Of a stretch of 16,342 bases of DNA, positions 1 to 10,443 are shown piece by piece. The DNA is from Promethearchaeota archaeon. Lineage in GTDB: Archaea > Asgardarchaeota > Odinarchaeia > Odinarchaeales > JBHLKK01. The stretch's first letter is position 1. Every line of letters begins with the position of its first letter. Where the stretch lies: positions 1 to 16,342 of the forward strand of contig JBHLPL010000038.1 of the NCBI GenBank assembly GCA_048939465.1. Reading direction: 5' to 3'. Under the pieces are notes generated by a model. The model saw nothing but the letters and a program-made list of their open reading frames with translations, was not told the DNA's origin and did no database searches. A program made the translations under genes and the position numbers.

Positions 1-823
1 TTCTACTTATTCTTCCTGGCACAGTCACATGCACAGGTTCCGGAATTTCATCGAATCTTCGAGATATTGCATAGCTCGCGAGTTTTCCTGTATTCAGAAT
101 AATCCCCCGGATTATCTCCAAAAAGGATCCTGCGGGTCCCCACCTGGTCCCTGTGAGGGCTGATATTATTTCCATGCTGATGTTTCTGACATACGACACG
201 GCTTTTTCTTTGTTAAGAGTTCTATTCTCTTTACTAAGGTATTCATCGAGCATCATGCTGTCAATGCGAACTGTGCTCCACAATGGAACTGAGGCTTGAC
301 CATGCTCGCCACCAACAAAAGCTTCAATTAGCCTCATTGGGACATCTAACTCCCTGGATAATATAGTCCTGAATCGAGATGTTTCAAGGTTTGTGCCGGT
401 GCCAACGACTTTACGTTTACCCTCAGCAAGCCTATGAGCCAACGTAGATAGAGCATCAACAGGATTAGTTATGACAAAGTACCAGGCACTTGGATTATTG
501 TCTATTGAGTTTGTGAGAATATCATGGACTACTCTGGCATTCTCCCATGTAAGATCTCTACGGGTCATCCCGGGCTTTCTCGGAGAACCTGCAGCAACAA
601 CGATCAGATCAGCATCATCTATATATTTTGAATGATTGAAGGACTCAATCTCCATTTCAAATCCGTGTGCTGCAACAGCATGATTTAGCTCTTCTCTTAC
701 CATCTCAGCAACCTTTGGAGCTGTATCGATTAGAGTCAATTTCCCAACATATTTCTCAAAAACAAGAGTATATGCGATTCCTTGACCGACTCTGCCGGTC
801 CCAGCTATCGCCACGTGCACCAT
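1..823 (-). CDS. mdh: LDH-like NAD-dependent malate dehydrogenase (3'-partial, runs off window start)
   Basis: Not in the ORF track. I translated it by hand from the ATG at 823 (GGTGA RBS just upstream): MVHVAIAGTGRVGQG (Rossmann), GSPRKPGMTRRDL (substrate loop with the MDH-type Arg), VITNPVDA, NLETSRF, GGEHG (catalytic His), TRWGPA. The frame stays open to the window edge. Confidence 0.88.
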   Translation of the reverse strand, partial: MVHVAIAGTGRVGQGIAYTLVFEKYVGKLTLIDTAPKVAEMVREELNHAVAAHGFEMEIESFNHSKYIDDADLIVVAAGSPRKPGMTRRDLTWENARVVHDILTNSIDNNPSAWYFVITNPVDALSTLAHRLAEGKRKVVGTGTNLETSRFRTILSRELDVPMRLIEAFVGGEHGQASVPLWSTVRIDSMMLDEYLSKENRTLNKEKAVSYVRNISMEIISALTGTRWGPAGSFLEIIRGIILNTGKLASYAISRRFDEIPEPVHVTVPGRISR

Positions 824-908
824 ATGAATCACCTATAGAAGATTTCATTTGATGATTATGCAGAATGATACGGGCTCATCTCGTTAAGGATTAAGATAGC
901 TTGTGGAT

Positions 909-1601
909 TCAGCTTATTATTCTTACGGTATATTCACTCTTGAGGCTTCTCTTCAATACCGGATCGAACATTTCTAACTTCCAAGTATCAGTAAATAACA
1001 TTTGCCTTTTGATTGTTGGAATCGTTCCTGCAAATACGATTGTTCCCGAGAGCTCTTCACCTATGTGATCTTTGATTATGGATATTAGATCATTCCACTT
1101 CAGGAGGAGCTCCAGTTTACCGTCTTGATACAGCTCCATATTGCCTTGACTTCGAATCCAAGATCTCATAATCAACTCATCCCAGTGATCCTCAACTTCT
1201 TCATAGAGCCATACAGTGCTCGACATAATCTTGGGAACCGCATCTTTCGATTCTTTCAGATCGTGTTTTTCCATCTCCCTGTCTGTATGGTCGCTTCCAA
1301 CCGCAACATAAGTTCTGGATCCATCAACCAGAATCACGTATTCAACTTCCCCAGAGGTCTTTTCATGTTCCACGTGAATGGTGCTACCGGTTGTCAGACG
1401 CGCAGGGCTGACAGGTAGCACTAAGGGTACGCTAACCCCTTGGCAGATTATGCCAATTTCTCTTGCCTCTTCCATGTGTTTCAAAACCAGAGCCTTGTTC
1501 CTCCCTGTGAAGCCGAGACAAAATAGGTTTTTTGCAGAATATCGTATTGGGTACTTTCCTCTTAGGGTCTGTACGGTCAAGGGAAGTATATTCTCAGTCA
1601 T
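909..1601 (-). CDS. DUF2848 family protein (probable FAH-like fold, function unknown)
   Basis: Motifs GFTGRN..V.KHMEE, TSGEVEY, VGSDHTDREME, LIMRSW, LYQDG and GTIP are typical of DUF2848. GGAGGT RBS upstream of the ATG. Confidence 0.8.
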   Translation of the reverse strand: MTENILPLTVQTLRGKYPIRYSAKNLFCLGFTGRNKALVLKHMEEAREIGIICQGVSVPLVLPVSPARLTTGSTIHVEHEKTSGEVEYVILVDGSRTYVAVGSDHTDREMEKHDLKESKDAVPKIMSSTVWLYEEVEDHWDELIMRSWIRSQGNMELYQDGKLELLLKWNDLISIIKDHIGEELSGTIVFAGTIPTIKRQMLFTDTWKLEMFDPVLKRSLKSEYTVRIIS

Positions 1602-1768
1602 TGATCGACCTCCATTTGAGGAGAGACGGATGTATTATTTTTCGTGGTATCAGGATAGATCTGTCTTGTGATATTCCTTGCTGGATGAAAGCCAACCGTT
1701 TCCGTTGACAACCATTTGATTTTGCGTGTAGTTCGTTGTTCGGAAACTTGGAACGTATGAAAGATGCA

Positions 1769-2707
1769 TCAGACGTTTCTTAAGAGATCAATTATTCTTT
1801 CTGCCAACATGGTACTTATCGATCTTTGGGTCTCTATTGTGGATGCCCCTATATGAGGCGTGCAAACTACGTTCGACAACCTCAGCAGAGGATTATCTAG
1901 GGGAGGTTCCTCCTCAAAAACATCAAGTCCCGCTCCGGCCAGTTTGCCTGTTTTCAAGGCCTTGTATAACGGTTCTTCGTCTACTATAGCGCCTCGAGCT
2001 GCATTTACTACATAGGCCCCATCTTTCATTGTTTCTATTTCTCTTTCTCCGATTAGGTGGTGTGTTTCGGGGAGTAATGGCACATGCAACGTTATTATGT
2101 CTGACTTTTTCAAAAGTTCATAAAGGCCTTCCTTTGATGGGCCATGATCCTCAACCTCCATTTCTCTTGCTTTCAAGAGACATGATTCGATGACGTCGTA
2201 GCAGAGCACATTCATTTCAAAGCCTTTGGCTATACTTGCCACTATCTGGCCTATCCTACCAAAGCCGATTATGCCAATGTTTTTTCCTTTTAATTCTTTA
2301 CCTAAAAGTCCTTTCTTAGTCCACTTGCCTTCCTTTAGGCCTTTATCGGCTTTCGGAATTTGCCTGAAAAGCGAAAGAAGTAGAGCGAAGACTAGCTCAG
2401 CAACCGATTCTGAGGCGGCCCCGGGTATGTTTAACACCTCGATATTGCGTTTCTTGGCGGCCTCTAAGTCAATATTGTCAAGTCCCACTCCAGCACGGGC
2501 AATTATCTTGAGGTTCTTCCCGGATTCCACGATTTCTTTATTCACCAATGTTCTGCTCCGGACGATGATTACGTCAAAGGTTTTGATCATCTCCTTTAAT
2601 CTCTCATGAGTTAGGTCTAGAGACTCCAGAACCTCGAATCCTGATTTCTTTAGCAAGTCGAGGCCGTCTATATGTATTGGTTCTGTAACAAGCACTCTCT
2701 TGGTCAT
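1769..2707 (-). CDS. serA: D-3-phosphoglycerate dehydrogenase-like D-2-hydroxyacid dehydrogenase (short form, no ACT domain)
   Basis: IIVRSRT, ARAGVGLDNID, GIIGFGRIG, HVPL.PET, VNAARG, LDVFEEEP, TPHIGAST. The family is certain; the substrate is inferred from the VRSRT and HIGAST motifs. Confidence 0.75.
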   Translation of the reverse strand: MTKRVLVTEPIHIDGLDLLKKSGFEVLESLDLTHERLKEMIKTFDVIIVRSRTLVNKEIVESGKNLKIIARAGVGLDNIDLEAAKKRNIEVLNIPGAASESVAELVFALLLSLFRQIPKADKGLKEGKWTKKGLLGKELKGKNIGIIGFGRIGQIVASIAKGFEMNVLCYDVIESCLLKAREMEVEDHGPSKEGLYELLKKSDIITLHVPLLPETHHLIGEREIETMKDGAYVVNAARGAIVDEEPLYKALKTGKLAGAGLDVFEEEPPLDNPLLRLSNVVCTPHIGASTIETQRSISTMLAERIIDLLRNV

Positions 2708-2745
2708 AACAATCCCTGCGAATCGCTTTAAGTGGAGTTTGAAAC

Positions 2746-4197
2746 CTACTGCGCGGGATATAAGTTTTTCGTAATCCGTGTGAATGCTGCTTTTTGTATT
2801 TCATATACTTTCTCGTTCTGTGGATTTGGCAGGAAGGTCTTTCTTGCACTTACAGTCTCTCTTGCCATTTCTGTAATTGCCTTTTTCCTTTTGCTCAGAC
2901 CCCAGCAGGCAATAATGGCAGAACCCTTTGCCGGTACGCTGGTTTCCGCAACTCTTACGATACGTCCGGTCACGTCAGCAAAAATCTGGTTTTGAATGTC
3001 ACTCTTTGCTCCCCCTCCGCAAACCCTGATCTCATTTACTTCGGTTTTGCTCAGATTCTTGATAATTTTCAAGGTCTGGTCCAACAGTATCGCATTTCCT
3101 TCCAGAAAGGCCCGGAAGATATTTCCAGGCGTGCAATTTTCTTTGGTCAAACCGACCAAATATCCCTTGACATCCGGATTAAAATCCGGAACGCGTGTTC
3201 CAACCCACTGAGGCTGGGCTATCAGTCCTCCAGATCCTGGAGGCGCTCCTTCAGCTTCGTTGTCAAGTTCCCGTAGACCCATTCCCAATAGTCGGCTGAC
3301 AAGTTCCAGACATCTTGTTCCGGCGTCGGTTGCTCCTCCAACGACGTACTTGTTTTCTATGTATGCTTTGTGATATAATCGCTTTTTTGGATCTGGAGTT
3401 ATTTGGTTTACCACCGCATGAATAACCATAGTCGCTCCCATGTTGACACCTACTTGGCCCGCTTCAATGACTCCCGCGCTTAAGTCACCCGCAGTTGCAT
3501 CGGTCACACCGTTGATTATGGGCGTATTTCTTGGTATTTCAGATTCTCTACTTATCTCATACGTGGTATTACCAACGATTTCCCCTATGGGTCTTATTGA
3601 AGGCAATAGATCTAGGTCAATATCTAGGTCTGCATATATCTGTTCTTGATACCTTCCTGTCCTTATGTCCGTGTGAGCCTTACCTGCTGTGTTGGGGCTT
3701 GTAGAGGGTTCCCCACAGAGCTTCATTACTATGAAGTCATTCTCATGGAGAATCTTGTAAGTTCTAGCGAGTATCTTGGTGTTTTTCCGCAACCATAGTA
3801 TCTTTGGTATCACCAAAGTCGGGTCGAGCGGTAGAAAAACCTCGTAGTCGCTTGCCGACTGACTTCTCTCGACGATTTCTCCTAATTCGGCTTGTGCCCT
3901 TTTATCGTCATACATTATCTCAGGGTAGAGAGGGGCTCCTTCTCGATTTACGGGCACGATTGTGCCGCTTGTGGCATCAACGCATATGGCAGCTAATTCC
4001 CTCCGACTCTGCAACTTGTTTACTGTCGAAACTACGCTATGCCAAAGTTTCGTGGCGTCTCTTTGAACCCAGTAGGTTTGAGGGGTCTTCAAAAGGTCGG
4101 AGACGTCAGTCTCTGCAAACTCCAGAATCTTTCCGTAATCATTCAATACGACAGCTTTTATGCTTGTAGTCCCGACATCAATCCCTAAGAATCTCAC
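2746..4197 (-). CDS. FGGY-family carbohydrate kinase, D-ribulokinase-like (SePSK/AtXK1-like) subtype
   Basis: FLGIDVGTTSIKAV, ICVDATSGT, GVTDATA, NMGATMVI, GGATDAG, FLEGNA, VCGGGAKS. Probable start is GTG at 4197 (track start 4251), overlapping the RuBisCO stop by 20 nt. Confidence 0.85.
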   Translation of the reverse strand: MRFLGIDVGTTSIKAVVLNDYGKILEFAETDVSDLLKTPQTYWVQRDATKLWHSVVSTVNKLQSRRELAAICVDATSGTIVPVNREGAPLYPEIMYDDKRAQAELGEIVERSQSASDYEVFLPLDPTLVIPKILWLRKNTKILARTYKILHENDFIVMKLCGEPSTSPNTAGKAHTDIRTGRYQEQIYADLDIDLDLLPSIRPIGEIVGNTTYEISRESEIPRNTPIINGVTDATAGDLSAGVIEAGQVGVNMGATMVIHAVVNQITPDPKKRLYHKAYIENKYVVGGATDAGTRCLELVSRLLGMGLRELDNEAEGAPPGSGGLIAQPQWVGTRVPDFNPDVKGYLVGLTKENCTPGNIFRAFLEGNAILLDQTLKIIKNLSKTEVNEIRVCGGGAKSDIQNQIFADVTGRIVRVAETSVPAKGSAIIACWGLSKRKKAITEMARETVSARKTFLPNPQNEKVYEIQKAAFTRITKNLYPAQ

Positions 4198-5512
4198 GAA
4201 TGTCCCTCGCGAAGCCAGGTTTTTTTGAGTATATGTGAGGCCAATGTTCAAGCGCCAATCTTAGTTCTTCGTGATCTCTCGAATACTCTTCCAAGGACAC
4301 ATTTTTCATTACCGCGTCTATTGCCTGCTTCATCGCTTTCGCCCCGGATCTGGTTCCTTTTGGATGGCCATGAATACCGCCACCTGCGTTTATCACGATA
4401 TCTTTGCCTAGAACATTAATGTTCTCTGGAACTAGACGTGGGTGAATTCCTCCTGATGCCACTGGAAACACTTTTTTCAATCCGTGCCAATCTGATAGTA
4501 GGAATGAATTCACTTCCTTCACTTCTTCTACTTCCTCCTTCAGCCCCATCTTTCCAGCAGCTGTCCCTGTATGCAGCTGGTCCCCACCAGCAAGCCTAAC
4601 GAGCTTTGCAACGACTTTCATGCTGATGCCGTGTTTCGGATTGCGAGTGAAGGCTCCGTGCATAGCTCTATGGACATGGATTGGGACTTTTATGGACGGA
4701 TCTTCTGCGAGAACCCTGAGAGAAGAAAAACCGGTTAATATGACGTCCACCATTATGCAATTGGCTCCCTGTTCCACGGCTAGATCCGCTAACCTCAGCA
4801 TTCTGTCAATCTTAGAGCTTATATTCAGGGCATACATGGGTCTTCTTCCAGTCTCTTCTTTTGCCTTGTCAAGTTCCTCCATTACCTTGACTAATCTTTC
4901 TTCAAGAGGGCAGAATCTCTGACTGGCCAAGGTTTCGTCATCCTTTATAAGATCAACTCCACCCAACGAAGCCTCATAGGCAACCTTGGACATCTCTTCA
5001 GGTGTTAATCCAACTTTAGGCTTCACAATAGTTCCAAGATGGGGGCGGCCCGACTCAACGGTCCCAACTATCTTTCTAATACCTTGAATTCCGAATTTGG
5101 GCCCTGAAAAGACTCTTGCAAAGGTTTTTGGGAAATCTACATCGAGAAGACGAACATTTCTTAGACTTCCCAAACCAAACAAGTTTCCGGCTATCATACT
5201 TAAGAGGTTGGGGATTCCACCGATTTCCGGATCAAAGAGGGCTGTCGGGAAAGCTATCTTGATTATACCGGTTCCACCCTTATCATACTTGAAAACCTTT
5301 GCAGGTAAGGTTTTTTTTATTCTCTCTGTAGACGTCGTGACCTCCGTCCATGTTCCAATCGACTCTTCAATTGCTATCTGCTCTCCTGCCTTAACAGTCG
5401 ACGGAAAATCTGTCTCCACATAGTATGTTGCGATAAGGTTCTTGTCTGGATCAATCTTGTCTGGCGGGGCGTAGAATATATCATTGACCTCTACTCCGTC
5501 TATCATTTTCAT
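4178..5512 (-). CDS. rbcL: RuBisCO large subunit, form III / form III-like
   Basis: EESIGTWT, AGNLFG, GTIVKPKVGL, GVDLIKDDE, HVHRAMH, LHTGT..GKM, VASGGIHP, AGGGIHGHP. Probable start is ATG 5512 after an AGGTGGGTG RBS (the track start at 5539 lies within the RBS region). Confidence 0.9.
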   Translation of the reverse strand: MKMIDGVEVNDIFYAPPDKIDPDKNLIATYYVETDFPSTVKAGEQIAIEESIGTWTEVTTSTERIKKTLPAKVFKYDKGGTGIIKIAFPTALFDPEIGGIPNLLSMIAGNLFGLGSLRNVRLLDVDFPKTFARVFSGPKFGIQGIRKIVGTVESGRPHLGTIVKPKVGLTPEEMSKVAYEASLGGVDLIKDDETLASQRFCPLEERLVKVMEELDKAKEETGRRPMYALNISSKIDRMLRLADLAVEQGANCIMVDVILTGFSSLRVLAEDPSIKVPIHVHRAMHGAFTRNPKHGISMKVVAKLVRLAGGDQLHTGTAAGKMGLKEEVEEVKEVNSFLLSDWHGLKKVFPVASGGIHPRLVPENINVLGKDIVINAGGGIHGHPKGTRSGAKAMKQAIDAVMKNVSLEEYSRDHEELRLALEHWPHIYSKKPGFARDIREILRD

Positions 5513-5548
5513 GGTGTATGCACCCACCTTCCCATTCACAGAAGCAGG

Positions 5549-5563
5549 TTTTAATCTTTTCCA
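5549..5563 (-). promoter_or_regulatory. Putative BRE+TATA promoter of the RuBisCO operon; the same AT box could serve the + strand
   Basis: The minus strand reads TGGAAAAG-ATTAAAA about 37 nt upstream of the rbcL ATG, leaving room for the RBS. The + strand reads GAAGCAGG-TTTTAATC about 25 nt before the structured segment. Confidence 0.45.
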
Positions 5564-5578
5564 TTTTAGAGTTTCTGG

Positions 5579-5826
5579 TCTGTGAACGGCATCTTGCCAG
5601 TCTCCGCGGATGCAGCCTTTCCGAAAGGGAAGAAAATTCCCGAGCTGTGAGAAGGTAAGGATCTTTGCATTGAGTGGAAGTCGGGAACTAGCGGGATAGA
5701 TTCCTTGTCGTCTGATAATGGAGACAAGTACCTTCCAGAAGTCGAAGGATGCGCACTGATGAGAAATGAGGCTGCTCTATTTCCAGATGCCTGAACGAAT
5801 CGAAAGGTCGCAGACAAATTCACGGA
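5579..5826 (+). ncRNA. Candidate structured RNA, group II intron domain I-II-like
   Basis: Complementary pairs 5579-5586/5819-5826, 5588-5594/5785-5791, 5612-5618/5769-5775, 5627-5631/5637-5641, 5651-5657/5729-5735 and 5704-5709/5723-5728, plus a GAAA-capped hairpin at 5796-5810. No credible protein in any frame. Confidence 0.4.
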
Positions 5827-5856
5827 AGCTGTAAAAAGGGGGTGTAGACGGATAAG

Positions 5857-7153: not shown

Positions 7154-8173
7154 ATGGTTCGAAAGACCCCAAGTGAGAGCGTGCGGATCCTGGCTCTAGT
7201 AAAATACGTATTGAAAAGAATAGCCACTGGACTAGTAACCTTCTTCTTTGTGATAGTCTTGAACTTTTTCATTTTTTGGGTCATGCCCGGTAATCCTGTC
7301 CAAATATACATACACAATACTCATTGGAATGAAGAGCAGATAGCCCATCTTATGAGAGTACTGGGATTAGATAGGCCGTGGTATTTGCTGTTCTTCAGCT
7401 ATCTGGTAAATGTATTCACACTTAATTTCGGAACGTCATTCACGCACTTCAGGCCCGTCTCAAGTATGTTGCTCGAAGCACTACCCTACACAATGCTGCT
7501 GCTTATCCCTGCGACAATAGGCTCGATTTTTCTGGGAATGAAGCTAGGTGCAAAATCGGCGTGGAATTATGGAAAAAAGTCAGACCTATCGACTCTAATT
7601 GTATCCTTGGTATTCTATTCAATGCCCGTATTCTGGCTCGGAATGTTCATGATACTGATTTTCGGTTTCTATTTCAGACTGTTTCCAATAGCCGGCGTCA
7701 TGAGCGCACAGTGGTTGTGGGTAGATCCGTTATCGAACCCATTGGTTTTTGTGTTGGATATTGTTTGGCACATGGTCCTGCCGTTAATGACTTTAATATT
7801 GTACCTATTTGGCGGCTACTACCTCATCATGAGGAACACGATGCTTGACACCCTGACCCAGGACTATATAGTTACTGCGAAAGCAAAGGGGGCAAGCGAT
7901 AATGCAATTATGTACAAACACGCCCAAAAGAACGCTATGCTGCCGATGATAACCGTTGTTGTTTTGGCGTTTGCCACTATATTTAGTGGTGCCGTTCTTA
8001 CGGAGACGATTTTTTCATGGCCAGGTATGGGTAAGTTGATGTACACTGCCGCATTGGAGCAAGATTATCCTGTTTTATGGGGCACATTTAGTATGTTGGC
8101 TATGTTGGTGGTTATTGCAAACATCGTAGCAGATATCCTATACGCGTACCTGGATCCTAGAATAAGATACTAA
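7154..8173 (+). CDS. dppB: Peptide/nickel ABC transporter permease, DppB/OppB family (copy 1)
   Basis: YVLKR N-terminus, LGLDRP, SMPVFWLG, EAA loop RNTMLDTLTQDYIVTAKAKG, VLTETIFSWPGMG, C-terminal DPRIRY. The start is uncertain (ATG 7154, or CTG 7190 aligned with the ATG of copy 2). Confidence 0.93.
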   Translation: MVRKTPSESVRILALVKYVLKRIATGLVTFFFVIVLNFFIFWVMPGNPVQIYIHNTHWNEEQIAHLMRVLGLDRPWYLLFFSYLVNVFTLNFGTSFTHFRPVSSMLLEALPYTMLLLIPATIGSIFLGMKLGAKSAWNYGKKSDLSTLIVSLVFYSMPVFWLGMFMILIFGFYFRLFPIAGVMSAQWLWVDPLSNPLVFVLDIVWHMVLPLMTLILYLFGGYYLIMRNTMLDTLTQDYIVTAKAKGASDNAIMYKHAQKNAMLPMITVVVLAFATIFSGAVLTETIFSWPGMGKLMYTAALEQDYPVLWGTFSMLAMLVVIANIVADILYAYLDPRIRY

Positions 8174-8185
8174 GAAACGATTGTC

Positions 8186-8199
8186 GCGCTTTACAGCGC
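8186..8199 (+). terminator. Possible small terminator hairpin after dppB copy 1
   Basis: GCGCT-TTAC-AGCGC just after the stop codon, followed by a T/G-rich tract. Confidence 0.2.
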
Positions 8200-8349
8200 C
8201 CGATTGTGTCGTTGTTGCGTCCTTGGAACCCCTCAGTCTTCAACACATCTTTGAACGTAATGTTATCGATCTTGTACTTCAAAAATAGAATTTGTTCTGT
8301 CCGTTGCAAAAAGAGCAAATTTCGCTCTATTTGCCATAACCAAGTTTCA

Positions 8350-8402
8350 AAATAATACAATAAGAATAATCTTTGTACTATTTCTATCAACATGTTTTTA
8401 AG
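8350..8402 (+). promoter_or_regulatory. Putative promoter of dppB copy 2/dppC
   Basis: AAATAATACAATAAG (8350-8364) and TTTTTAAG (8395-8402), homologous to 7046-7097. Confidence 0.55.
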
Positions 8403-8495
8403 TAAATTTACACCTAGAATATGGACATAAACCCGATGTGTCGATAGAACAGGATCTAGATCTTTAGAGAAGCCTTAAGCGAGGGTGCGCTGATC

Positions 8496-9482
8496 ATGGG
8501 CTTAGGAAAATACGTATTGAAGAGAGTGGGTACCGGGCTAGTAACCTTCTTTTTTGTGATAGTCTTAAACTTTTTCATCTTTTGGATCATGCCCGGTGAT
8601 CCAGTAGCGCTACTCGTTTACGGAATACCTGGCATGACCCCAGAGCAGATAGAGCGCCTCATTCACGTGCTAGGATTGGATAGACCATGGTATATGCTGT
8701 TTCTTAGCTATCTGGTGAATATATTCACTTTCAATTTCGGAGTCTCGTTCTCACAATTCAGACCGGTCTCAAGCATTCTGTTAGAGGCTTTGCCGTACAC
8801 AATACTTCTACTTGTTCCTGCAACAATAGGATCAGTGTTTGTTGGAATGAAGCTTGGCGTGAAGTCAGCATGGAACTATGGAAAGAAATCAGACCTATCA
8901 ACCTTAATTACATCTCTGGTATTCTATTCTATGCCAATATTCTGGCTCGGAATGTTCATGATACTTATCTTTGGTTTTTACCTCAGACTGTTCCCGATAG
9001 CTGGCGTTATGAGTTCATTCTGGCTATGGGTAGATCCGCTATCCAATCCACTAGTTTTCGTACTAGACATTCTATGGCACATGTTCCTGCCCTGTCTAAC
9101 CCTGATACTGTTCTTGTTCGGTGGTTATTACCTCATCATGAGGAACACGATGCTCGACACCCTGACCCAGGACTATATAGTCACAGCGAAGGCGAAAGGT
9201 GCAAGCGACAGAGCGGTAATGTACAAACACGCCCAGAAGAACGCTATGCTGCCGATGATAACGGTCATTGTTCTGGCTTTCGCCACGATATTTAGTGGTG
9301 CCGTCCTTACGGAGACGATTTTTTCATGGCCCGGTATGGGTAGGTTGATGTACACTGCCGCAATGGCGCAGGACTATCCCGTTCTGTGGGGTACCTTCAG
9401 TATCCTAGCCATGCTAGTAGTGTTCGCAAACATTCTTGCCGACATATTGTACGGATACCTTGATCCAAGGATAAAATATTGA
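8496..9482 (+). CDS. dppB: Peptide/nickel ABC transporter permease, DppB/OppB family (copy 2)
   Basis: Same motifs as copy 1: MPGDP, LGLDRP, EAA loop, ETIFSWPGMG, DPRIKY. Confidence 0.95.
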   Translation: MGLGKYVLKRVGTGLVTFFFVIVLNFFIFWIMPGDPVALLVYGIPGMTPEQIERLIHVLGLDRPWYMLFLSYLVNIFTFNFGVSFSQFRPVSSILLEALPYTILLLVPATIGSVFVGMKLGVKSAWNYGKKSDLSTLITSLVFYSMPIFWLGMFMILIFGFYLRLFPIAGVMSSFWLWVDPLSNPLVFVLDILWHMFLPCLTLILFLFGGYYLIMRNTMLDTLTQDYIVTAKAKGASDRAVMYKHAQKNAMLPMITVIVLAFATIFSGAVLTETIFSWPGMGRLMYTAAMAQDYPVLWGTFSILAMLVVFANILADILYGYLDPRIKY

Positions 9483-9507
9483 GAGAGCTAAAGGAGTGCG
9501 ATTGATA

Positions 9508-10443
9508 ATGGAAGAAGCCGAATATAAAGTCAAAGCTAAGGCCAAATCCAAAGAAATGCAAAGAACAAGGGTAGGGTTACGTAGTTCACTGAGGAAATAT
9601 AGAATTCGCATTTCGAGATTTTGGAGACTCTACAGGCAGAGTAAAATGGGAGTGATAGGACTGGTACTGCTTGTGACATTCGTAGTTGTAGCAATCTTTG
9701 CGCCTTATATAGCACCCTATACCCCTAATGACTTCTTCGTTGGAACGTCACTGGAGTCCCCAAGCTTCCAACACCTTCTCGGATGTGATGAAATAGGCAG
9801 AGATATACTTTCTCTACTAATCTATGGTACAAGAATATCTCTTACTGTAGGTCTGCTGGCATCACTTGGCACAGTCCTCATTGGAACCCTTGTTGGATTG
9901 GTGGCAGGATACTCGGGAGGGAGAGTAGACGAAGCTCTTATGAGGATAACTGATGTAATCCTCATGCTGCCCGGAATTCCGCTGCTGATTGTCTTCGCTG
10001 CTATGCTTGGTGCAAGTTTGATGAACATTATAACCATCATTGTGATACTCACCTGGGCACCGACGGCAAGGGTCATCCGAGCTCAGGTTCTCTCGATGAA
10101 GGAACGGCCTTTTATAGAAGCTGCAAGAGCGGTTGGAGGCAGTGACAGACACGTAATAGTTCATCATATACTGCCCAATGTCCTGCCTTTGGTATTCACC
10201 TATATGATTCTGAATATTCCGGTGGCAATAGTCACTGAGGCTTCCTTGAGTTTCTTGGGTCTCGGTGACGTGAGCGCTGCAAGCTGGGGAATGATGCTAA
10301 ACTTCGCATTTAACGCAGGAGCAATCGATAGGTGGTATTACATAATACCTCCTGGAGCTCTCATCACGGTACTGGCGTTCGTGTTTGCGCTAATAGGCCA
10401 TGCAATGGACGAGGTAATAAATCCGAGACTCAGACAAAGATAG
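9508..10443 (+). CDS. dppC: Peptide/nickel ABC transporter permease, DppC/OppC family
   Basis: HLLGCDEIGRDILS..IYGTRISL, EAA loop ARVIRAQVLSMKERPFIEAARAVG, HILPNV, EASLSFLGLG, SWGMML, DEVINPR. Probable start is ATG 9508 after AAGGAG. Confidence 0.95.
   Translation: MEEAEYKVKAKAKSKEMQRTRVGLRSSLRKYRIRISRFWRLYRQSKMGVIGLVLLVTFVVVAIFAPYIAPYTPNDFFVGTSLESPSFQHLLGCDEIGRDILSLLIYGTRISLTVGLLASLGTVLIGTLVGLVAGYSGGRVDEALMRITDVILMLPGIPLLIVFAAMLGASLMNIITIIVILTWAPTARVIRAQVLSMKERPFIEAARAVGGSDRHVIVHHILPNVLPLVFTYMILNIPVAIVTEASLSFLGLGDVSAASWGMMLNFAFNAGAIDRWYYIIPPGALITVLAFVFALIGHAMDEVINPRLRQR

Follow-up and report, generated by a model that had tools for sequence, protein, structure and literature searches.

A form III RuBisCO gene is paired with the gene for a divergent FGGY-family kinase in a Hodarchaeota-like Asgard archaeon

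Introduction

RuBisCO offers an exit for pentose carbon, in which a C5 compound and CO2 yield two molecules of 3-phosphoglycerate (3-PGA). Kinase and RuBisCO genes are combined in the phosphoribulokinase (PRK)-RuBisCO modules of the Calvin cycle and of the reductive hexulose phosphate pathway of methanogens, and kinases are likewise coupled to the RuBisCO-like proteins (RLPs) of form IV, namely MtnK/MtnW in methionine salvage and an acid-sugar kinase with an RLP decarboxylase in apionate catabolism. The pentose bisphosphate pathway of Thermococcus kodakarensis comprises AMP phosphorylase, ribose-1,5-bisphosphate (R15P) isomerase, form III RuBisCO, nucleoside phosphorylases and the ADP-dependent ribose-1-phosphate (R1P) kinase TK2029 (PMC9700705). 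A non-carboxylating version in haloarchaea consists of an R1P kinase, R15P isomerase, a HAD-type phosphatase for ribulose-1,5-bisphosphate (RuBP) and a FucA-type ribulose-1-phosphate (Ru1P) aldolase (PMC9700705). The known R1P kinases are of the PfkB type and not of the FGGY type (PMC9700705), and further ones may be present, as yet unrecognized, among the archaeal sugar kinases whose acceptor has not been established (Sato et al. 2022, PMC9700705).

Here we describe an operon in a window of 16,342 nt (positions 1 to 16,342 of contig JBHLPL010000038.1) in which a form III rbcL is joined to an FGGY kinase gene, a combination for which our literature search returned no paper. As in T. kodakarensis, the genome encodes form III RuBisCO, AMP phosphorylase and an e2b2-type isomerase, and RuBisCO would be the exit for pentose carbon; in contrast, rbcL here lies apart from its partner genes, in an operon with the FGGY kinase, a dehydrogenase resembling phosphoglycerate dehydrogenase (PGDH) and malate dehydrogenase (MDH). 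PRK-RuBisCO modules share with the locus a kinase gene beside rbcL, and with related clusters also a phosphoglycolate-phosphatase-like HAD protein, but the window's kinase is an FGGY protein and not a member of the PRK/uridine-kinase family.

Results

Organization and integrity of the operon

As the initial annotation had stated, five co-oriented genes are encoded on the minus strand, and their families were confirmed by Pfam and NCBIfam:

5513..5856, minus strand: upstream non-coding region of the operon, holding an 85-aa ORF (5566-5823) without a family match
4178..5512, minus strand: rbcL, form III RuBisCO large subunit, 444 aa (Pfam RuBisCO_large, 269.7 bits, and RuBisCO_large_N)
2746..4197, minus strand: FGGY-family kinase, 483 aa (Pfam FGGY_N and FGGY_C)
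1769..2707, minus strand: D-isomer 2-hydroxyacid dehydrogenase, SerA-like, 312 aa (2-Hacid_dh_C and 2-Hacid_dh)
909..1601, minus strand: DUF2848 protein, 230 aa (PF11010, 185.8 bits)
2..823, minus strand: archaeal-type malate dehydrogenase of the LDH/MDH superfamily, truncated by the contig end (Ldh_1_N and Ldh_1_C)

The spacing reported earlier is exact, with a 20-nt overlap of rbcL and the kinase gene followed by gaps of 38, 167 and 85 nt. The rbcL gene starts with ATG, preceded by GGAAGGTGGG, and the kinase gene with GTG, its N-terminus VRFLGIDVGTTS lining up with the start of all homologues. DUF2848 starts with ATG and has its own SD (GGAGGT), with an AT-rich box in the 167-nt gap upstream, and the MDH gene starts with ATG at 823, with GGTGA upstream. 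The promoter of the operon presumably lies within 5513..5856. Two independent MAGs of the same genus (L004 and L018) have the identical 20-nt overlap and 38-nt gap, followed by the 2-hydroxyacid dehydrogenase gene, and about 90% or more of the words sampled from the 5.9-kb stretch also occur in contigs from several independent metagenome studies. The operon of this Hodarchaeota-like Asgard archaeon is genuine, and in it rbcL is translationally coupled to the FGGY kinase gene through the 20-nt overlap.

A form III RuBisCO with a canonical supply route elsewhere in the genome

The RbcL protein retains 20 of 21 catalytic and RuBP-binding residues, L335 being replaced by Met, and these residues mark it as the bona fide form III enzyme that had been proposed. 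It scores 457.8 bits against the TIGR03326 rubisco_III model (cut-off 497.45), and its best solved match is the form III enzyme of P. horikoshii (2cwx, 370 bits). In the window's genome, a 91%-complete Hodarchaeota-like MAG (G000), it is the single match to PF00016; judged by its residues, it is a catalytically complete form III RuBisCO and the sole RuBisCO homologue found there. Since every carboxylase residue and both phosphate-site residues are kept, it is not an RLP. This sets the locus apart from the form IV operons, which it resembles in that a kinase adjoins an enzyme of the RuBisCO superfamily and in that relatives of the kinase stand beside an RLP in L005 and L012. The NCBIfam profile search of the operon also included the OiaX model among its matches.

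Genes for AMP phosphorylase, R15P isomerase and PRK are missing from the window, as the initial annotation had noted, and its proposal of a new pathway was built on the premise that the canonical supply was absent. This premise fails at the level of the genome: contig C137 encodes an AMP phosphorylase (664 bits, over the cut-off), adjoined by a gene for an e2b2-type R15P isomerase (284 bits). The latter is 55-58% identical to the isomerase of a sister family that is encoded beside RbcL and AMP phosphorylase, all three genes lying within about 5 kb. With the two genes side by side on another contig, a canonical RuBP supply exists, which is part of what the initial annotation had named as speaking against its proposal. 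The window's RuBisCO is the only one found that can use the product of these enzymes. An AMP phosphorylase and an isomerase are present not only here but in nearly all kinase-bearing genomes, with R15P isomerase above the cut-off in all 11 kinase-bearing Thermoproteota and PRK in none of them. The gene for a RuBisCO relative that is 68% identical to the window's RbcL shares an operon with those for PRPP synthetase and two e2b2 proteins; a XylB-type kinase is encoded close by.

The genome search suggested earlier thus turned up both canonical enzymes and, as anticipated, no PRK (PF00485), neither in this genome nor in about 23 kinase-bearing genomes examined. Neither transketolase nor transaldolase was found in the window's genome, and a true ribulose-phosphate epimerase was not found there either, the Rpe model giving only partial 26-bit matches in a frame of ~410 aa; this frame, which matches the Rpe/HPS barrel weakly, also occurs in relatives. 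RuBisCO is therefore the only visible exit for pentose carbon, and as the canonical AMP route already accounts for the supply of RuBP, a new source is not required.

The kinase belongs to a divergent archaeal clade

The kinase is the single PF00370 match and sole FGGY kinase found in the genome; several PfkB kinases are present in every genome examined. It shares with the FGGY pentulose kinases (XylB, ribulokinases, L-xylulose/3-keto-L-gulonate kinase) the two-domain architecture and, at the N-terminus, the DxGT(T/S) ATPase motif, and XylB is its nearest curated family. However, it reaches only 245 bits against the XylB model (NCBIfam cut-off 380), and only 127 bits with its best solved match, E. 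coli XylB (2itm); the cyanobacterial and plant putative sugar kinase structures (5htr) follow at 78.7 bits, below E. coli XylB. The substrate-loop motif GQMHG of XylB is replaced by D[AGS]TSG[TS] in the clade and by DATSGT in the window's kinase, and five cationic residues (R46, K173, H175, H260 and K277) are invariant in the archaeal clade at positions occupied by Q, T, L, F and F in XylBs. In agreement with the initial annotation, the protein is thus not an orthodox xylulokinase, lying far under the XylB cut-off and lacking GQMHG; by sequence, it belongs to an archaeal FGGY clade without a characterised member.

Bacterial relatives of the kinase are encoded in PTS operons, directly upstream of a PGM_PMM phosphomutase, and the PTS delivers phosphorylated sugar. 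The genome of a bacterial relative (29% identical) has no gene of the RuBisCO family. In the locus L013, the orthologue lies one gene away from a class II bisphosphate aldolase. The motif exchange, the cationic residues, the PTS/phosphomutase context and this aldolase neighbour are signs of a possibly anionic substrate, although the cationic residues, which would line the pocket, suit a sugar acid equally well. We know of no FGGY kinase that acts on a phosphorylated sugar.

The pairing recurs in several lineages

The initial annotation had proposed the rbcL-FGGY linkage as a check, and we found it kept in all three genomes of the genus and recurring in another phylum. The kinase clade is present in 11 of 400 Asgard and 11 of 401 Thermoproteota genomes, and the kinase abuts a complete RuBisCO in five and six of these, respectively, as well as in the JGI contigs L025 and L027. 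A second Asgard genus has a clade member beside a catalytically complete RuBisCO in another orientation; overall, co-directional, convergent and divergent arrangements occur. According to the kinase tree, the adjacency needs at least three gains or losses, and the adjacent partner is always RuBisCO itself, never AMP phosphorylase or the isomerase. Across several lineages and three orientations, the adjacency is beyond chance.

About half of the clade does not stand beside RuBisCO (genus g30, including a complete genome, Brockarchaeota, Jordarchaeum, G585, G793 and L008); in L005 and L012 the neighbouring RLP lacks the distal phosphate site, and in genus g63, where the adjacency is convergent, one of three genomes has lost it. 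RuBisCO without this kinase is found in 350 of 400 Asgard genomes. The sister MAG L004 has a second FGGY-RLP pair, divergent from the rbcL operon.

Some clusters contain a partner kinase. In the type-A clusters of Thermoproteota this partner exceeds the XylB cut-off, and the gene after that of the clade kinase encodes a phosphoglycolate-phosphatase-like HAD protein; in the type-B clusters (L024, L025) the partner is a rhamnulokinase-like 1-kinase. The latter two loci also encode a class II aldolase, for which the haloarchaeal Ru1P aldolase model is the top NCBIfam hit (159.7 bits, under the cut-off of 300). Aldolase and HAD phosphatase recall the haloarchaeal pathway, but the related clusters, like the window, keep a complete RuBisCO, the haloarchaeal kinase is from another family, and the window's operon has neither an aldolase nor a phosphatase.

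The downstream genes

The 2-hydroxyacid dehydrogenase has no ACT or ASB domains and matches the first 302 of 525 positions of the PGDH profile TIGR01327 (362 bits). Its best solved match is 1wwk, a 'phosphoglycerate dehydrogenase' of P. horikoshii (291 bits), with glyoxylate reductases at 226 bits. The earlier label SerA is therefore plausible in the sense of a short phosphoglycerate dehydrogenase, but its recurrence is only loose (L013, L017, L025). The other two proteins, which had been proposed as pathway members, did not hold up as such. DUF2848 is missing from the operon of the sister MAG L004, where the MDH gene directly follows that of the dehydrogenase, and is therefore a local add-on of this genome; sequence searches gave no solved relative, and HMMER no FAH match at E ≤ 10 for this supposedly FAH-like protein. 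MDH has a full-length orthologue in L004 (83% identical; best solved matches the MDH chains 30iz and 6qss, 216 bits), and its linkage is confined to this genus.

Discussion

The interpretation from which we started is partly supported: a role of the kinase in making RuBP, for example from Ru1P, is a live hypothesis. We tentatively favour a kinase that makes a pentose or pentulose 1,5-bisphosphate feeding RuBisCO, an assignment of the substrate from gene context and residues. The kinase would be a second entry to the RuBisCO exit, adding a phosphate to the primary hydroxyl that is still free in a pentose or pentulose monophosphate. Our first choice would be the conversion of R1P to R15P, from which the isomerase of the genome would form RuBP, and our second choice that of Ru1P (or ribulose-5-phosphate, Ru5P) directly to RuBP. 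The PGDH-like dehydrogenase may pull the product 3-PGA towards serine. MDH would be a passenger that is co-regulated with the operon in this genus only, and DUF2848 an insertion confined to this genome.

Nearly as likely as this bisphosphate-making kinase is an ordinary pentulose kinase of the ribulose/xylulose type, a possible 5-kinase with an indirect link to RuBisCO. Pentulose-5-phosphate would proceed via ribose-5-phosphate, PRPP synthetase, a phosphoribosyltransferase, AMP phosphorylase and R15P isomerase to RuBisCO, and joint regulation of the genes would reflect that, in an archaeon lacking a non-oxidative pentose phosphate pathway, pentose carbon can leave only via RuBisCO. XylB as best family match points in this direction, as do orthologues beside Aldolase_II, AP_endonuc_2, fucose/arabinose isomerase, GH42, an above-cut-off XylB or PTS EIIC-GAT, the wide co-occurrence with AMP phosphorylase and isomerase, and the PRPP synthetase/e2b2 operon of the close RbcL relative; transketolase and transaldolase were not found, and new enzymology would not be needed. 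However, the low XylB score and the missing substrate motif argue against it, the operon has no sugar isomerase, epimerase or aldolase, and a neutral pentulose leaves the invariant extra cationic residues unexplained. Moreover, of the enzymes in this five-step route, the kinase clusters only with the final one and with none of those in between.

It is rather improbable that substrate and product are not linked at all and that the substrate of the kinase is an unrelated anionic sugar, such as a 3-keto-aldonic acid of the L-xylulose/3-keto-L-gulonate (LyxK) type, the adjacency reflecting shared regulation of carbohydrate catabolism or gene-order drift and RuBisCO serving only AMP/nucleotide salvage. 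A carboxylate fits the cationic residues, and some orthologues have EIIC-GAT, Aldolase_II, AP_endonuc_2 and Ldh_2 neighbours, contexts which we take to resemble ascorbate/diketogulonate-type operons; the half of the clade apart from RuBisCO, the bacterial relative without it and the 350 Asgard genomes without the kinase agree with such a separation. Drift sits poorly with independent adjacencies in at least three lineages and orientations, including the 20-nt overlap, since in a genome of ~2000 genes, any two given genes have a chance of well under 1% per lineage of falling within a few genes of each other, and the decarboxylase, epimerase and transporter of a pathway of this kind are all missing from the operon. 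Least probable is a non-homologous phosphoribulokinase, i.e. a Ru5P 1-kinase, using Ru5P from the archaeal HPS-PHI (RuMP) enzymes. Together with RuBisCO, it would complete a cycle of the reductive hexulose-phosphate or Calvin type or, failing that, a shunt from Ru5P to 3-PGA. The absence of PRK from the kinase-bearing genomes would suit it, as would the ~410-aa frame if read as an HPS-PHI fusion, the phosphatase-like HAD protein of the type-A clusters and their XylB partner, a 5-kinase leaving the 1-position to this clade. The type-B partner is a 1-kinase and leaves the 5-position, so that the two cluster types make conflicting predictions; in addition, the known FGGY 1-kinases (rhamnulo- and fuculokinase) fall in other clades of the kinase tree, conversion of the XylB product would have to do without a true ribulose-phosphate epimerase, and there is no evidence of autotrophy. 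The pairing of the kinase with RuBisCO hints at a new route of sugar carbon into this enzyme, alongside the usual supply route.

Organization of the operon

The five genes are encoded on the minus strand, and the family names given to them in the initial annotation were all upheld by Pfam and NCBIfam models.

5512..4178, minus strand: rbcL, with an ATG start preceded by GGAAGGTGGG (read on the DNA)
4197..2746, minus strand: FGGY kinase gene, with a GTG start (read on the DNA)
2707..1769, minus strand: 2-hydroxyacid dehydrogenase gene
1601..909, minus strand: DUF2848 gene, with an ATG start and GGAGGT before it
823..2, minus strand: LDH/MDH-family gene, with an ATG at 823 and GGTGA before it, truncated by the contig end

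Since the start codons were confirmed on the DNA, the proposed spacing, i.e. a 20-nt overlap of rbcL with the kinase gene followed by gaps of 38, 167 and 85 nt, is exact. The N-terminus of the kinase, VRFLGIDVGTTS, lines up in the alignment with the initial residues of all homologues. The host MAG (1.96 Mb, 91% complete, 3.8% contaminated) has a Candidatus Hodarchaeota MAG as its closest named relative, with an RbcL identity of 87%. In all three genomes of the genus, rbcL overlaps the kinase gene and the dehydrogenase gene comes next. A chance adjacency or a mis-assembly is ruled out by the two further loci of the genus (L004 and L018) together with the recurrence of the pairing in other lineages. 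The locus is present in mangrove or sediment samples, and the sequencing runs listed for it include no RNA data set.

The 344-nt interval between a DUF1848 gene and rbcL contains an 85-aa ORF (5566-5823, minus strand) without a family match, which may be spurious. On the plus strand, three consecutive Opp/Dpp-type ABC permease genes (OppB-like, OppB-like, OppC-like; 7154-10443) are found, for which no ATPase or binding-protein gene is present in the window; permeases of this type also flank the L004 cluster.

The RuBisCO

The residue test in spinach numbering covered E60, T65, W66, N123, T173, K175, K177, K201, D203, E204, H294, R295, H298, H327, K334, L335, S379, G380, G381, G403 and G404. 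The window RbcL is identical at 20 of these 21 catalytic or RuBP-binding positions, with both phosphate sites, the carbamylated lysine and K334 kept, and has Met at position 335, as do all close form III relatives examined. Its nearest solved structures are 2cwx of P. horikoshii (370 bits), followed by 1geh and 3a12 of T. kodakarensis, and thousands of archaeal homologues at 60-68% identity come from Asgard archaea, Nitrososphaeria and Bathyarchaeia. The form III model TIGR03326 scores highest (457.8 bits), about 40 bits short of its cut-off of 497.45, which is an NCBIfam naming threshold and not a mechanistic feature; the models for the RuBisCO-like proteins (RLPs) MtnW and OiaX reach at most 308 bits. 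No RuBisCO_small match was obtained among the window ORFs, and no RuBisCO-family gene other than rbcL was found in the MAG. The form III identity proposed earlier thus stands: judged by residues and relatives, RbcL is a bona fide form III RuBP carboxylase with predicted activity, and the kept catalytic residues rule out that it is an RLP.

A true RLP is encoded in L004 (3533-7809, Hodarchaeota MAG G298), divergently from the rbcL operon. This second RuBisCO homologue carries the changes T173N, K177C, R295M, H298A, H327V and S379A and is part of a run consisting of a saccharopine-dehydrogenase-like gene, a XylB-like FGGY kinase gene (522 aa), the RLP gene and Opp-type permease genes; in the window's MAG, the DUF1848 gene occupies the place of this run. 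Elsewhere, a RuBisCO gene (G303:C1:1158965-1160182) and a RuBisCO homologue (G118:C85:2371-3240) each contain one in-frame TAA, which could reflect a pseudogene, an assembly error or a small intron.

RuBP supply and pentose metabolism

Archaeal form III RuBisCO is at present accounted for by a single supply line, which leads from AMP or nucleosides via ribose-1,5-bisphosphate (R15P) to RuBP. In Asgard archaea, RuBisCO has been described only within nucleotide salvage (PMC11291895), and the ribose-1-phosphate (R1P) kinase step is unidentified in most lineages (PMC9700705). The initial annotation assumed that the canonical supply was missing, a premise that does not survive the inspection of the host genome. 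On another contig (C137), an AMP phosphorylase is encoded (27107-28597; TIGR03327, 664.1 bits, cut-off 535), and directly upstream, ending 8 nt short of its start, lies a gene of the e2b2-type R15P isomerase family (26157-27053; 283.8 bits, just short of the cut-off, 314.1). This putative isomerase is 55-58% identical to the one clustered with AMP phosphorylase and RbcL in the sister family, which belongs to the same taxonomic order and in which isomerase and phosphorylase (63% identical) are one gene away from RbcL, representing the textbook cluster. From this we conclude that AMP can supply RuBP to the window RuBisCO.

Phosphoribulokinase (PRK; PF00485) had no match in the 91%-complete MAG, and neither transketolase nor transaldolase was found there, so that RuBisCO is the sole visible exit for pentose carbon, a situation reported for Thermococcales (PMC9700705). 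The search for the epimerase Rpe returned only partial matches of 20-27 bits within frames of about 410 aa (a single one, of 26 bits, in the window's MAG), which we read as an HPS-like barrel and not as Rpe. Several PfkB genes are present elsewhere in the MAG, and because the same is true for every genome searched, they are uninformative with regard to a canonical R1P kinase.

An operon on two JGI contigs (L051:1791-8894 and L052) encodes an e2b2 protein, PRPP synthetase, a second e2b2 protein, an RbcL 68% identical to that of the window and an AsnC regulator, and convergent with it are genes for a XylB-type FGGY kinase and a transaldolase/FSA. This operon is a genetically explicit R5P-PRPP-R15P-RuBP route, which means that an indirect route from pentose phosphates to RuBP is also wired genetically to RuBisCO in some archaea. 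AMP phosphorylase of another genome (G450:C6:23619-26555) comes in two halves, matching profile positions 2-206 and 200-493, with about 1.45 kb between them in one uninterrupted 1017-aa frame; the insert is probably an intein.

The kinase defines a separate archaeal clade

The window kinase, the only FGGY kinase found in its MAG, matches FGGY_N (114 bits) and FGGY_C (67.3 bits) above the cut-offs and carries the N-terminal DxGT(T/S) phosphate-binding motif as GIDVGTTS (residues 5-12). Its closest curated family is XylB (TIGR01312, 245.2 bits, cut-off 380.25) and its best solved relative is E. coli XylB (127 bits; the cyanobacterial/plant D-ribulokinase type, 5htr, was set aside at 78.7 bits). 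A xylulokinase assignment was rejected based on the score below the cut-off, the replacement of the GQMHG motif by DATSGT and the separate clade in the tree.

Database searches revealed a sharply bounded group of archaeal homologues at 39-50% identity, beyond which identity falls to about 30%. The members belong to Hodarchaeota, Freyarchaeota, Jordarchaeum, Brockarchaeota, Aigarchaeota and Nitrososphaeria; the clade has a support of 100/100, its split from XylB-type sequences one of 98/99, and its sister is a bacterial sub-group. Throughout the clade, the xylulokinase loop GQMHG is replaced by D[AGS]TSG[TS], and R46, K173, H175, H260 and K277 are invariant at positions that are occupied by Q, T, L, F and F, respectively, in xylulokinases. 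These five cationic residues suggest an anionic substrate, which may be a sugar phosphate or a sugar acid.

The bacterial relatives from Thermoanaerobacter sp. YS13 and Biomaibacter acetigenes (29-30% identical) share the motif and are cationic at three of the five positions. Their genes belong to pentitol-type PTS operons (L048:8001-11564, L049:4585-10799), in which a PGM_PMM phosphomutase gene comes directly after the kinase gene and a class II aldolase gene is nearby; further members of the Biomaibacter operon (L048) are RpiB and a split transketolase. Biomaibacter lacks a RuBisCO-family gene, and therefore the wider kinase family is not tied to RuBisCO.

Recurrence of the kinase-RuBisCO pairing

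Among 400 Asgard genomes, RuBisCO is present in 350 and the kinase clade in 11, which belong to three genera. Apart from the window's genus, the kinase is convergent with a complete RbcL in two of the three genomes of genus g63, where it stands at the end of a PTS-type EIIC/EIIB/EIIA module; the RbcL of the third genome is located elsewhere and preceded by a related dehydrogenase. The EIIC, EIIB and EIIA proteins are 61, 50 and 37% identical to their counterparts in Thermoanaerobacter sp. YS13 (L049), and the module, including the kinase, looks like a transferred bacterial one. The g63 loci with EIIC-GAT, EIIB and EIIA_2 upstream of the kinase are L014:3-3968, L015:245-2520 and L016:7641-11452. 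In genus g30, which includes a complete genome, kinase and RbcL are megabases apart. A TnpB/Cas12f-like (OrfB_IS605) gene is located directly beside the kinase orthologue of the Freyarchaeum-like complete genome G117 (L019:7917-9302), and this orthologue is unlinked to RuBisCO.

The kinase was also detected in 11 of 401 sampled Thermoproteota. In six of these, a complete RbcL, 57-65% identical to that of the window, adjoins the kinase divergently, as is also the case on two JGI contigs (L025 and L027). The clusters are of two types. In type A, the kinase gene is followed by a HAD phosphatase gene, and RbcL, in the opposite direction, by genes for a GH42 glycosidase and a XylB scoring above the cut-off. 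In type B, a fucose/arabinose-isomerase-like protein, a rhamnulokinase-like FGGY kinase and a FucA/Ru1P-aldolase-like class II aldolase are encoded on the RbcL side, with the kinase gene on the other. A strong RuBisCO match was found in 10 of the 11 kinase-bearing Thermoproteota and in 139 of the 401 overall, a co-occurrence to which we give little weight because only about four lineages are represented by the 11 genomes. An R15P isomerase scoring above the cut-off is encoded in all 11 and AMP phosphorylase in nine or ten; PF00485 had no match in any of them.

The linkage expected in related genomes was therefore recovered in the whole genus and in other lineages, but not in g30, nor was adjacency seen in Brockarchaeota, Jordarchaeum, genomes G585 and G793 or contigs L008 and L013. 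In L005 and L012, the neighbour of the kinase is an RLP without R295, H298, H327 and K334. On the kinase tree, adjacency must have been gained or lost at least three times. From this recurrence and the R15P isomerases we conclude that the pairing is real, recurrent and of more than one origin, is not universal, and always coexists with the canonical route.

The accompanying genes

The dehydrogenase (312 aa) has the catalytic and NAD domains of the 2-Hacid_dh type. Its best solved match is 1wwk of P. horikoshii, deposited as phosphoglycerate dehydrogenase (291 bits; glyoxylate reductases, 226), and its match to TIGR01327 covers the catalytic half and amounts to 362 bits; the cut-off of 454 is missed because the protein lacks the last 220 profile positions at the C-terminus. 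The ACT regulatory domain is restricted to long SerA forms. A dehydrogenase linking 3-PGA to serine is plausible from these matches. A related dehydrogenase is encoded after the kinase in L013, and another before RbcL in G286.

The MDH, of the archaeal LDH-like type, is indeed part of the operon, but its linkage to rbcL is confined to the window's genus; the gene next to it in the sister MAG, on the downstream side, encodes a class I/II aminotransferase. DUF2848 is a local insertion into the operon, being absent from that of the sister MAG and having its own ribosome-binding site after the 167-nt gap. Its description as FAH-like found no backing in the sequence searches, in which PF11010 was the sole match at E≤10, without FAA_hydrolase, and phmmer returned no solved relative.

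Possible functions of the kinase

Reading the function of the kinase from its sequence and neighbourhood, we tentatively favour the phosphorylation of a pentose or pentulose monophosphate to a 1,5-bisphosphate. Our first choice would be the conversion of R1P to R15P, which would draw on the isomerase that every kinase-bearing archaeal genome encodes, would fit the phosphomutase neighbour of the bacterial relatives and would fill the R1P kinase gap named in the literature (PMC9700705). The known R1P kinases (TK2029, Pcal_0041, Halxa_1682) have a ribokinase/PfkB fold, in contrast to the FGGY fold of the window kinase, which would thus work like them without belonging to their family. The second choice would be the conversion of ribulose-1-phosphate (Ru1P) or ribulose-5-phosphate (Ru5P) to RuBP. 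That the clade represents a natural, non-homologous RuBP-forming kinase, acting either as a Ru5P 1-kinase (PRK analogue) or as a Ru1P 5-kinase, we consider improbable, and the role of a PRK analogue, taken by itself, is very improbable; since PRK belongs to the PF00485 family, any such role would be by analogy only.

An ordinary pentulose 5-kinase, the product of which would reach RuBisCO via R5P, PRPP, AMP and R15P, is a somewhat less likely alternative that requires no new chemistry and has a parallel in the L051/L052 operon with its PRPP synthetase, two e2b2 proteins and nearby XylB-type kinase. However, it leaves unexplained the lost XylB motif, the cationic residues and why RuBisCO alone is clustered. 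An unrelated sugar-acid kinase without a substrate link to RuBisCO appears distinctly unlikely; an anionic substrate and the RuBisCO-free Biomaibacter are compatible with it, and the recurrent pairing speaks for a link.

Novelty and implications

In the literature search, an FGGY kinase linked to form III RuBisCO was not found in any paper, and searches on RLPs with FGGY kinases, on xylulokinase in the pentose bisphosphate pathway, on Hodarchaeota RuBisCO and on Ru1P and glycolaldehyde in photorespiration brought up no description of the pairing. New here are the Asgard case with its predicted translational coupling of rbcL and kinase, the canonical route alongside the pairing in every case, and a kinase clade defined by motif and residues.

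The only RuBisCO of this Asgard archaeon appears to be translationally coupled to a kinase, the clade of which is independently found beside complete RuBisCOs in another phylum. The kinase is a candidate for a missing entry enzyme by which sugar or nucleoside carbon is channelled into RuBisCO-dependent heterotrophic CO2 incorporation. If it is an ordinary pentulose kinase, archaeal pentose catabolism without a pentose phosphate pathway would still be genetically wired to RuBisCO. If RuBP is the product, the reaction of PRK would have been solved a second time by an unrelated enzyme, with implications for how RuBisCO evolved before the Calvin cycle and for synthetic carbon-conserving pathways. 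A kinase-RuBisCO shunt could then operate in Asgard and Thermoproteota archaea that lack PRK; together with HPS-PHI and gluconeogenesis, it could even make a Calvin-like or reductive hexulose-phosphate cycle, and such a shunt or cycle could be fed by free sugars or by glycolaldehyde and DHAP.
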